A stretch of DNA of 64,000 nt, taken from the IMG/VR virus record IMGVR_UViG_3300021167_000382, positions 146,130 to 210,129 of that record; one strand, given 5' to 3'. Every line of letters begins with the position of its first letter. Position 1 is the stretch's first letter. A program made the position numbers and the translations under genes. Shown in pieces: positions 2,196 through 27,342 of this stretch. This DNA is from a virus (taxonomy: Duplodnaviria; Caudoviricetes). Under the pieces are notes generated by a model that was not told the origin of the DNA, made no database searches, and saw only the letters and a program-made list of their open reading frames with translations.

Positions 2196-3534
2196 CCTTC
2201 AACAGCACAAGAAGAATCGGAGTGTAGTAGAACTTCTCAACACGACCCCAGGACTTCCAGCTATTGACCAGCATGGCTAGATGACCAAGATGCGGTGTTT
2301 CAGCCTTCAAGTAACTGGTAGTCAGAATTTCCAAAAGGGACATACTCCCTGCATCTTGCCCATAGAAGCTTTCAGACAAGACATAGAACCCATTCTTGTT
2401 AGCTTCGTAGATCAGAGGAATGGTTTTCCCAGCATATTCAATCGAAGGGATTGGATCAGCCAGAGGTACACCAATGAACGGTCCAATCATTCCAGCCAGA
2501 TTAGCGCTAGCAGATAGTCGATTATAGACCAGATTAGCGGCATCGAGATCAGGATAAACATACTGATCCACATTCCAACAATTCGTGGTGGTTAAGAAAC
2601 TATTCTGAGCGAAGAACGAACGAAAGACCTTGGATACTTTCGGCAATGCGACCGAGAGCATATCGATATTACGCTGAAGAATCACCGTCCAAATAGACGA
2701 CAATGTCAAATAAGGATCACGGTCATGTGAGACACGGTGGATGTAAGTGGCTTCAGGCGCAATTTCAGGATCAACAATGGCGTGTACAAAACCAGCAGCA
2801 CGGCTATCGTACAAGTAGTCGTCATCAGGAACGATCAAGAGACGGTCAAGATGTGAAGTAAACAACGTCAAATAAGTCTTGGTTAAGGTAGCGTATTTCC
2901 CACGAAGTTCATTGACATCGCCATGTTCTTCTGTGGTGAGTAATGAAACTTGACCCGCCTGGAGACGTTCTTTGTGGAAATGAAACTCCTTTACTACGCG
3001 GTGTTCAAGTGCCTCATAGCGCGGTTTAGCAGTGTCACTGTCCACATAGCCGATCAGGATATAGTCAATCTCATAAACACTGCCGTTGTTATAGGTCTTA
3101 CGTGTTGAAGTTGTGACCATGAAGAGACCAAGTCCACGAACACCGACATCTGTCACAAAGTAGTCGTAGGCATTCGGAATCATACCGATAGCGACTGCAG
3201 AGCCCTTGACATCGTTACGGCCCGTTGTTTCATCATAGGACTGCGATAGTTCTGACTGAACACGAAGCTCGATGTTGTTCAGTTTCCGATACTGTTGTAG
3301 GGCTGCGGATTGCCCGAGGTCAATTTCACGAATATCGTCATGACGATCACCAAGCTGACTGTAGTAAGTGACCGTCCAAGGCATACCTTCCATGTAGAGG
3401 ACAAGTGATTCTGGCGGGTTAATGGCCGAATCAGCCGCTGCAGTCTTGTAAATATTCTTCTCTTTCAGCATCTCTCCGACAGGCAAAGGAGATTTGTCTA
3501 CAACAACTTCAGGTTTCTTTTTAGCGATAGGCAC
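2173..3534 (-). CDS. Hypothetical protein, probable virion structural protein
   Basis: 453-aa ORF, GTG start with AGGAG RBS; function inferred from context. Confidence 0.5.
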   Translation of the reverse strand: MPIAKKKPEVVVDKSPLPVGEMLKEKNIYKTAAADSAINPPESLVLYMEGMPWTVTYYSQLGDRHDDIREIDLGQSAALQQYRKLNNIELRVQSELSQSYDETTGRNDVKGSAVAIGMIPNAYDYFVTDVGVRGLGLFMVTTSTRKTYNNGSVYEIDYILIGYVDSDTAKPRYEALEHRVVKEFHFHKERLQAGQVSLLTTEEHGDVNELRGKYATLTKTYLTLFTSHLDRLLIVPDDDYLYDSRAAGFVHAIVDPEIAPEATYIHRVSHDRDPYLTLSSIWTVILQRNIDMLSVALPKVSKVFRSFFAQNSFLTTTNCWNVDQYVYPDLDAANLVYNRLSASANLAGMIGPFIGVPLADPIPSIEYAGKTIPLIYEANKNGFYVLSESFYGQDAGSMSLLEILTTSYLKAETPHLGHLAMLVNSWKSWGRVEKFYYTPILLVLLKDAVAGYY

Positions 3535-23950: not shown

Positions 23951-24098
23951 TGTGAAAACTCCTTGAGTTAATAAACTTGTGAACGATCTTTCGAGATTAA
24001 TTCCCAGTAGGTTTAATAATCGGCTGTTTAAGTCTCGGTAGGTCCTTCTTTAGAGGTGTAAAAAGGGAAGGAGGCGTGCGCCTCCTTCCCTCTATTGA

Positions 24099-24746: not shown

Positions 24747-27246
24747 TTAACCTCCTTGATGGGTGGCTTGAGCTGCATCCCGACGACTACGCCGCAACCA
24801 TTCAGAGGTTGAAGCGATCACACTGTCCGTCATCGAGGCATTTTTCGAGAGTTCCAATGGTTTATCGAGCAACAGCAAGTTGAAATGAGGGCGGAATGGG
24901 TAATACAGATCTTCCATGAAATGGTCCATGGCTGGCATGAAATTAACTTCGTCTACTAGTTACGTGGACTATATCTTAGCAAGCATAGCTCGCTCCCCCC
25001 GTTTCGGAACAGTGTCTCTCGACAGTAATCCCTACTCTACTCGGTTCGTCTCCCGACGCCTTTCGATAGTCTCTGAACGTTCACCAGTTAAGGCGCTTCG
25101 CTGCTGATTGTACCTGACTCTCGATTTTCAAGCATATCGCGCTCACCGTTTCCAGTCACGCTGTAGCTCAAGAGCTTCATGGGTAGTTTCCAGCAATTAG
25201 AGGGGTTTAACGACGGCAACGTTATTTCTTTCTACCGTCATAGTCCTTATTGTCCAACTAAGTCGCCTATTAGTCTTAGTTCGGTGTGCGTCGACACCCG
25301 CACGACATCTCTGCCGTGAACAGATCATATCTTCACCTTCACCCGTGGTGGTAAGGTGCTTCCTTTTTCTTCCCCTCAGTGGCTTAGGGGTTCTACTCTA
25401 CTCGGTTCGTCTCCCGACGCCTTTCAATGATCGTTGAACGTTCACCCTCCCGGGTGCTTCGCTGCGGGTTATCTAAACTCAACTTCTTTTACCATACCCA
25501 GTTAGTTAAGCTGGCCGCGCACCACTTTCGTTTATGCGTTTGGTGTGTTGAGTAATAAAGACTTTCCCGTCAATTAAGGAAGATTCACTCTGATTTTTTC
25601 AAACCAGGTGGCCTGAGGTATCCCCAGCATTCATGGAAGTTGCGATAAGATCCGAAATTGAGACTGTAGTGTCAAGAGGGTTAGTCTTGAACTTGGTAAT
25701 TCGCACTGTCTCAGCCGAACCTTGCATCAGAGATGGCTTTTGTCCATTCAGTTCGCTAGACTGAACCGGTACGCTAGGTACCTGCTATAGCTTTCACTAT
25801 AGAACAGACTATATCTTAACCTTCACCCTTGGTGGTCAGGTTCTCCCGTTCACCGCGCTTGCGGTACCTAGTCGTTGAGCACACACCTTACCCTCTCGGG
25901 CTATAGGCGCTTCGCTGCGGATTTCCCAATACACGTCTCTTTTACCATACCTGAGTGATTAGTTCAGCCGCATAGTCTCTTTCGAGCGTATGCTTGGTGT
26001 ACGTGTCTCTAAGGGGGTCCCCGTCAGTTAGAGAGATTTTACAGTAGTATTTCTACTACAGGCAACCGAGTTGATTGCGTTGGATGGTACTGATGATCGC
26101 ACCATGACGACTACCCTTGATCAGATCCTGCATCATGGCATCCAGCTTCGGATGATATTTCCCAACATGATCCATGAGGAAGTTGGTTGCTTCACCATGG
26201 GTCATACCGCCATGAGGATGATCTCGTCGGAGTAGAACGGCCATATGGTGCTGCCACCAGACTGTAACCCCAACACCCCAAGGCACATGGATCTCGTCAT
26301 ACTCATGAATCCCGTCATGCGAGGTGATCACCGCTCGGAAGCTATAGTTACCTCGTGTCCCATACACATGCTTCCGATACGTCCCAGTCTTGGGGCGAAG
26401 GTTGGTAGCGATGTAGTTTTCGTAGTAATCACACAACATCAGCAGAATCTTAGCAGTCCGATTCTCAATAACAGTCGGGGTCTTGTCATGATAGTCGGTG
26501 TCAATGCTCAGCATCGTGTTCATGATGTTGTGCATGTCCAGTACGTGGGATTCTACGAAACGACCCAGGTCATTGGCTTCCACCACCAACAGCGCACGAT
26601 TGATCAGTGGTAGATAGTTGCAGAAGATGAGATGCCGGTGCGTCTGGACAAAGTATTCCAGTGGGTCAGTGTCTGGCGGCACACCGACCATATCCCGAGT
26701 TGTCTTGTGCAGATGGCTCTTGGTCACGAACTCCCCAGACCGGATGAGGTAGGAGAAGATCTCGTCAAACTGCCGAATGAAGTTATTCAAACCACGTGGG
26801 AGGCCGTCCGAGATCATCTTCGTTAAGATCGCTGGCCGTGCTTGCGGCACATAGCTTCGATCAATCAGCCAGCGGATGATGTTGCAACCCTTCTTACTGA
26901 AACGATGTTGAAGCATGATCAGTACATGCGGAACGATCAACGCATCAACACCCATCGGCTTACGGAACCAGAGCATGGACTTGATATCATCTTTGATGGA
27001 TTGTTCCACAGGGGTCTTACAGGATTCACACAGCATACCCACATACTGCTCGCCACGGAGTTCACCGCAGCGACACTTCGGCATCATGGTGACCATATCC
27101 GCGGTATGTGTCTCCTTGATCAGCCAGTTAAAATATTCACGATCCCTTTCTGTTCTATTTGGAAGATCGTTGATGATGATGACTTCGTTCGGCGGAAGCG
27201 TTTCGAAATCCCTATTGTAGTTGACAAGTTCTTGAAAAACCGGCAC
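24747..27246 (-). CDS. nvRNAP beta' N-terminal subunit (phiKZ gp55-56.1-like), four exons: 27246-26074, 25736-25626, 25245-25234, 24953-24747 (~500 aa)
   Basis: N-terminal zinc finger, RKHVYGTR and RAVIT; joined exons read IQRN|PSLMQGS...MNA|DYDG|DEVNF, restoring the RN-P-L and NADYDGD motifs in frame. Confidence 0.9.
24954..25233 (-). ncRNA. Group I intron 3 (280 nt, no ORF; apparent terminal A)
   Basis: P1 GACGGU/GCCGUC with U.G pair; AAUUGCUGGAAA, AAUCAGCAG, UUCAGAGACUA, AAGAUAUAGUCC. Confidence 0.85.
25246..25625 (-). ncRNA. Group I intron 2 (380 nt, no ORF)
   Basis: Starts after GCU, ends in G before GAC; AAUUGACGGGAAA, ACCCGCAGCGAAG, GUUCAACGAUCA / AAGAUAUGAUCU (covarying P7). Confidence 0.85.
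25737..26073 (-). ncRNA. Group I intron 1 (337 nt, no ORF)
   Basis: 5' splice site after U with P1 GCAAU/GUUGC; P, Q (AUCCGCAGCGAAG), R (CUCAACGACUA) and S (AAGAUAUAGUCU) elements; terminal G. Confidence 0.88.
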
Positions 27247-27296: not shown

Positions 27297-27342
27297 GATA
27301 CAACTAGAAGCGGGTGGGGTCCACCCGCTTCTATAACCATCG

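Follow-up and report, generated by a model that had tools for sequence, protein, structure and literature searches.

The phage phiKZ gene gp55/gp56/gp56.1 (NC_004629; joined chain, PDB 7OGP) has a group I intron at its catalytic motif, at the site N|ADFDGD. The phiKZ intron is single, carries an HNH endonuclease, ends in G and leaves no micro-exon. Here we describe an orthologous gene with three introns, the second of which (intron 2) is inserted 3 nt downstream of the phiKZ site. A preliminary description of this DNA had taken it as established that group I introns occur in jumbo phage RNA polymerase genes, usually with homing endonucleases. Insertion at active-site codons is expected of homing introns (PMC12908238). 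Three introns in one gene are also known from Staphylococcus phage Twort orf142. As later papers summarize the work of Landthaler and Shub (1999), two similar IA2 introns lie around a short Twort exon of 23 nt, and exon skipping was seen (PMC10136302, PMC11878797). The orf142 gene is a tail tube gene, whereas the locus described here interrupts a polymerase active site and has an exon of only 12 nt. The DG|D site holds a single intron, its core similar to that of our intron 3, in Serratia phage 2050HW, Aeromonas phage D3 and Staphylococcus phage Madawaska. All of these end in G, two are unannotated as introns in their records, and the Madawaska intron has a short tail without P9, like intron 3. 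In the cultured phages 2050HW (L036:2013-2310) and D3 (L037), the interrupted gene is annotated as two separate genes. Finally, an A in place of the terminal G, as in intron 3, has been described for Diderma L2066 (PMC3679873) and for hexacoral ND5-717 (PMC6545197). Both of these introns join their exons correctly, and in vitro L2066 does so efficiently. Those are eukaryotic rRNA and mitochondrial introns, whereas intron 3 is a phage mRNA intron that is also without P2 and P9 and has a closely similar G-ending allele. An incomplete literature search turned up no description of a phage RNA polymerase intron that has a terminal A and is without P9.

The window analyzed here is the whole 64-kb stretch of DNA at the end of a 210,129-base virus record, which has direct terminal repeats at its ends. 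Among the gene products are homologues of the phiKZ proteins chimallin (E 9e-10), gp50 (DNA polymerase), and gp59, so the genome probably belongs to a nucleus-forming, chimallin-encoding jumbo phage. An ORF on the minus strand of the window (27246-26056) matches phiKZ gp55-56.1, the beta' chain of the non-virion RNA polymerase (nvRNAP), with PDB 7OGP chain A matched at E 6e-39. Homology, the DxDGD motif, and a position before gp59/SbcD-like genes identify the split gene as the predicted catalytic beta' half of a phiKZ-type nvRNAP. Strong hairpins at 27305-27333 and 24064-24091 flank a unit made up of the polymerase gene and a downstream 213-aa gp59-like gene.

All exons and introns of this gene lie on the minus strand. 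Exon 1 (26074..27246) ends in QRN, contains the PDB 7OGP match, and covers positions 1-380 of the PHROG 2987 profile. It is followed by intron 1 (25737..26073), which is 337 nt long and occupies the RN|P site, and by exon 2 (25626..25736), whose 111 nt run from PSL to MNA and cover profile positions 381-417. Intron 2 (25246..25625; 380 nt, NA|D site) and intron 3 (24954..25233; 280 nt, DG|D site) are separated by a micro-exon of 12 nt (25234..25245) that encodes DYDG, including the first two catalytic Asp residues. Exon 4 (24747..24953) starts with DEVNF, provides the third catalytic Asp, covers profile positions 422-476, and continues to the stop codon. Joined together, the four exons form a single open frame of 500 aa, and its alignment to P0008, a homologue whose gene is uninterrupted, is gap-free (58.7% over 491 aa). 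The spacing from RN to DxDGD is 39 residues in the joined product, as in six intron-free homologues, and on the PHROG 2987 profile exons 1, 2, and 4 leave exactly four positions, which are those of the micro-exon DYDG. The gap-free frame and the profile coverage bear out the earlier proposal that three group I introns split the beta' NADYDGD motif around a 12-nt exon. The junctions proposed with it, AAT|CCA, GCT|GAC, and GGT|GAC, fit the frame, the alignment, and the spacing, with the caveat that GGT|GAC needs intron 3 to end in A, which had been left unstated. Retention of any one intron truncates the encoded protein at 396, 436, or 435 aa, before the Asp triad is complete, and as predicted from this layout the catalytic triad needs all three introns to be excised. 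No ORF is present in any of the introns, as had been described; the longest stop-free run inside them is 50 codons in sense and 63 in antisense.

All three introns match the group I model RF00028 of Rfam, intron 1 with 62.4 bits (E 4.5e-15), intron 2 with 51.8 bits (E 6.7e-12), and intron 3 with 44.8 bits (E 8.7e-10), the last of which is under the gathering score. In each intron the cognate P3 (7/7) and P7 (6/6) are completely paired, the guanosine-site G-C pair of P7 is present, and a U.G pair in P1 lies at the 5' splice site. The U.G pair is invariant across six intron 3 alleles, and the G-C pair is likewise invariant among intron 3 alleles. The P/Q/R/S core elements and the U at each 5' site, first read from the sequence alone, are thus recovered by the model search and the complete helices. 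We consider all three to be group I introns within the nvRNAP beta' gene, and they are presumably self-splicing. Introns 1 and 2 have a P9 hairpin and a terminal G. Intron 2 is IA2-like, with a 3-bp exon P1 and a td-like 3' end, and a 5-bp P9.0, identified by inspecting the sequence, appears to set this end. Intron 3 has neither a P9 hairpin nor a terminal G, and it is also without P2. The hallmark of subgroup IA2 is a pair of extra stems, P7.1 and P7.2, between P7 and P3; these stems are paired in the intron 3 alleles (helices 11-14), which would place intron 3 among the IA2-like introns as well. Across the six alleles of intron 3, 97.6% of cells are paired and 17 pairs show two-sided changes, with 0/500 shuffles as high, although these are related sequences, and the slide control is biased because the pairing scheme was derived from the window itself. 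The two-sided changes and the shuffles indicate that the ribozyme fold of intron 3 is under selection.

Nearly all group I introns need a terminal G. For intron 3, the in-frame junction requires A24954 as the last intron base (A24954|G24953). Several alternative ends were considered and rejected. Ending the intron at G24953 causes a frameshift and loses the third Asp, and ending it at G24956, three bases upstream, gives a stop codon. If the 5' site is moved to rescue either of these G ends, the motif becomes DYDGN or DYDVD or gains an Ile, and the U.G pair is lost, whereas frameshifting after splicing at G would put Tyr in place of the third Asp. Eight other assemblies, made from separate ENA and Logan samples, have the identical A|G junction (L003, L004, and L042-L047); of these, L042-L047 are near-clonal and had been selected for their identity to exon 4 of the window. 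Because separate assemblies carry this junction, the terminal A is very unlikely to be a mistake in the record. The A-ending tails found are of just two kinds, and that of L003 differs from the window's, with 18/242 core positions also differing. The same intron with a terminal G and an unchanged G-binding pair is found in L006, L007, and L041; the L006 allele differs from the window at just 8/242 core positions. By a hand count, the other introns whose ends could be mapped, more than 40 in number, are all G-terminal.

The pairings around the 3' junction distinguish A24954 from the neighboring G. When G24953 is taken as the first exon base, P10 opens with four contiguous pairs stacked on P1, and P9.0 is paired 2/2. 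With the exon starting one base later, P10 collapses and P9.0 falls to 0/2. Since the P10 and P9.0 registers fit at the A site and fail one base later, it is favored over the adjacent G, and we infer that splicing occurs at A24954. The G-ending alleles L006 and L007 share the window's P10 register. Against this inference, the P9.0 helix has just two pairs and no two-sided change, and the P7 G-C pair is unchanged, so there is no compensation in the pocket for the A. The intron tail after P7 consists of 12 nt with no fold. A P2 hairpin, missing in the window's intron 3, is present in L003, L004, L007, and L041. The A tail sits on several different intron bodies, which suggests that it has spread by recombination and has not been strongly purged. 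As published terminal-A exceptions exist, intron 3 may be counted as a variant group I intron. We also observed that the 3' strand of intron 3 P7 is partly complementary to the 3' junction (window 24951-24969), where a small competing hairpin is possible; a similar one can form in the G-ending alleles. A search of GTDB genomes with the A-end pattern gave no match, a 3'-end pattern search of viral contigs gave 10 loci, none of them a beta' exon 4, and a single-sequence search of viral contigs gave no matches. The P1 pattern search returned mostly chance matches, with two real ones.

The introns are distributed patchily among relatives. Most of the 89 homologues found stop at QRN, NA, or DG, which are the intron sites of the window, and every combination of introns occurs, including none. 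For example, L039 has an exon 1 that is 97.8% identical to the window's, introns 1 and 2 (intron 2 with 12 differences from the window's), and an uninterrupted DYDGDEV without intron 3. L004, again with an exon 1 that is 97.8% identical, combines introns 1 and 3 with a different intron, an HNH-bearing one, at IA|T. In L003 and L006, intron 1 carries an HNH ORF and is accompanied by intron 3 but not by intron 2, L007 has introns 2 and 3, and L001 has intron 2 only. HNH-like ORFs lie inside the intron-2-site introns of L001 and L041, and HNH or NUMOD ORFs occur in same-site or neighboring introns of relatives. The core of intron 1 is one base from that of L004, whose intron holds a 221-aa ORF (2378-3043) with a Cys-rich N-terminus and no Pfam match. 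This protein may be an atypical endonuclease, and the clean absence of its ORF from the window suggests a recent gain or loss. An HNH_3 profile search of the whole genome gave no match, and the genome has a fourth ORF-less group I intron (C1:61131-61439, L048; 83.4 bits) with a terminal G. The introns of this genome have presumably lost their endonuclease genes. Synonymous differences in exon 2 (25626-25690, compared with L039 and L004) cluster in its 3' half, with exon 1 and intron 1 nearly identical, and this cluster fits the co-conversion tracts of homing.

Short exons at this motif are not confined to the window. The 12-nt DxDG exon is found in six other loci (L007, L018, L030, L041, L098, and L136). 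L018 has four introns and exons of 15 and 12 nt, and L019 (5380-6700) and L033 have four introns with 12- and 9-nt exons (PNAD and FDG), an arrangement denser than that of the window. The DG|D-site introns of L018 (L018:6474-6745), L098, and L136 have a core type unlike that of intron 3, so this site has likely been invaded by more than one intron lineage. At L025:3900-4270 a 15-nt exon, DYDGD, precedes an intron placed one codon beyond, which adds a fifth insertion site to the motif. On this comparative evidence, the crowding of three introns is best explained as a homing hotspot, a pile-up of selfish elements of a known kind, and not a control switch.

Our preferred reading, to which we give a probability of roughly 0.8, is that three independent group I ribozymes derived from homing splice independently of one another, and that intron 3 ligates at A24954. 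Endonuclease-driven homing would have placed the three ribozymes in neighboring conserved codons, with the endonuclease genes lost after invasion, and the 12-nt exon would be the mere distance between two independent insertion sites. Each intron would excise itself by two transesterifications, presumably in any order and with no regulatory role. In intron 3, guanosine attack would cut after the U.G pair, using the 8-bp P1 and the normal G-C site in P7. Ligation at A24954|G24953 would be positioned by the P1-stacked P10 and the 2-bp P9.0, with the A seated where a terminal G would ordinarily lie in the pocket, and this second step is possibly slower. The nvRNAP is presumably essential in phiKZ-like phages, so enough correctly spliced product must form. 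A more specific version, which we consider possible but doubtful, is that intron 3 is a protein-free ribozyme without P2, P9, or terminal G, in which P10 and the 2-bp P9.0 alone pick the splice site and reject the adjacent G. Its second step would then set the supply of nvRNAP, since this ligation makes the last catalytic Asp codon.

The preliminary description had proposed something different, that ordered splicing gates the production of active nvRNAP. Under this explanation, the introns flanking the 12-nt exon would be spliced in order or in a coupled way, forming a maintained gate through which polymerase production is timed or tuned, with skipping of the exon as the off state. The dependence of the active site on removal of all three introns fits such a gate, as do the 33-nt block common to introns 2 and 3, whose chimeric cores retain P3 7/7, and the precedents for exon skipping in Twort and SIOphi (PMC10136302, PMC11878797). 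A slow terminal-A step could also be rate-limiting. However, P1 of intron 3, with its U.G pair, has a probability of 0.99 both with intron 2 present and with it removed. The micro-exon is indeed shared with this helix, although the intron 3 guide can pair with 8/12 of its bases, the last 8 nt, rather than with half (6) as first described. On the micro-exon, intron 2 forms no P10 in register, and the best off-register pairing that its 5' end makes there is no better than chance (40% of shuffles). Because P1 is unaffected and intron 2 has no usable P10, introns 2 and 3 likely do not compete for the micro-exon. The relatives, with their every combination of introns, also argue against a gate: guide sequences are the same whether the neighboring intron is present or absent, and the introns keep essentially unchanged ends where a neighbor is absent (L039 without intron 3, L006 without intron 2). 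Neither a helix that depends on removal of the other intron nor a conserved arrangement, as regulated ordered splicing would have, was found, and we regard the gate as quite improbable. Skipping of the micro-exon would be in frame and destroy the active site, as had been predicted, giving a 496-aa product with NADEV and without two catalytic Asp residues. Such skipping is possible but disfavored, because pairing of the intron 3 guide is complete (8/8) at its own site but 4/8 at that of intron 2, and a chimeric intron 2/3 core has 2/6 P7 pairs broken. The cores flanking the window's micro-exon differ in P3 and P7, as opposed to the similar pair described for Twort, and in model tandem introns skipping is suppressed when the splice sites have become different from each other (PMC10136302). 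A chimeric intron 1/3 core fits better than the 2/3 core (P3 7/7, P7 5/6), and given this, joint skipping of exons 2 and 3 may be equally worth seeking. In our reading, any skipped product would be an error rather than a form of control.

Two other explanations concern the terminal A itself. It could be an assembly error in which GG collapsed to G, with the intron truly ending in G. Two G-ending alleles have a 13-nt tail compared with 12 nt here, and a one-base loss would mimic this difference, but the same junction in eight other assemblies from separate samples, including the divergent L003, largely refutes an error, and L041 is a G-ending allele with a 12-nt tail. We find this explanation scarcely credible. 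Alternatively, intron 3 could splice poorly or ambiguously, with much of the RNA joined, frameshifted, at the neighboring G or a host or phage protein needed, so that the phage lives on the A-joined fraction. A G does lie one base downstream, the pocket is an unchanged G site, and the intron is without P2 and P9 and scores below the Rfam cut-off; in corals, the yield of ligated exons from the A-ending ND5 intron is more than tenfold below that from the COI intron (PMC6545197). Conversely, the P10 and P9.0 registers both point to A, the presence of the A tail on several intron bodies indicates that it is not being purged, and Diderma L2066 is efficient with A (PMC3679873). Poor splicing is therefore unlikely in our view, and independent splicing with ligation at A24954 remains the preferred reading.

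Gene callers give this polymerase as a truncated 396-aa protein without an active site, and most of the retrieved homologues are likewise truncated, so micro-exons at the DxDGD motif are missed across jumbo phages. Three introns with a skippable short exon were already known from Twort, introns at this motif from phiKZ, and a terminal A from Diderma and coral. The value of the locus lies in its natural pair of A- and G-ending alleles, separated by few core differences and with only one junction giving a working enzyme, rather than in a gating switch. This pair offers a clean test of the terminal G against P10 and P9.0 in the choice of a 3' splice site. Rather than a new regulatory system, the stacking of these introns is an example of how closely selfish introns can be packed within a conserved motif.
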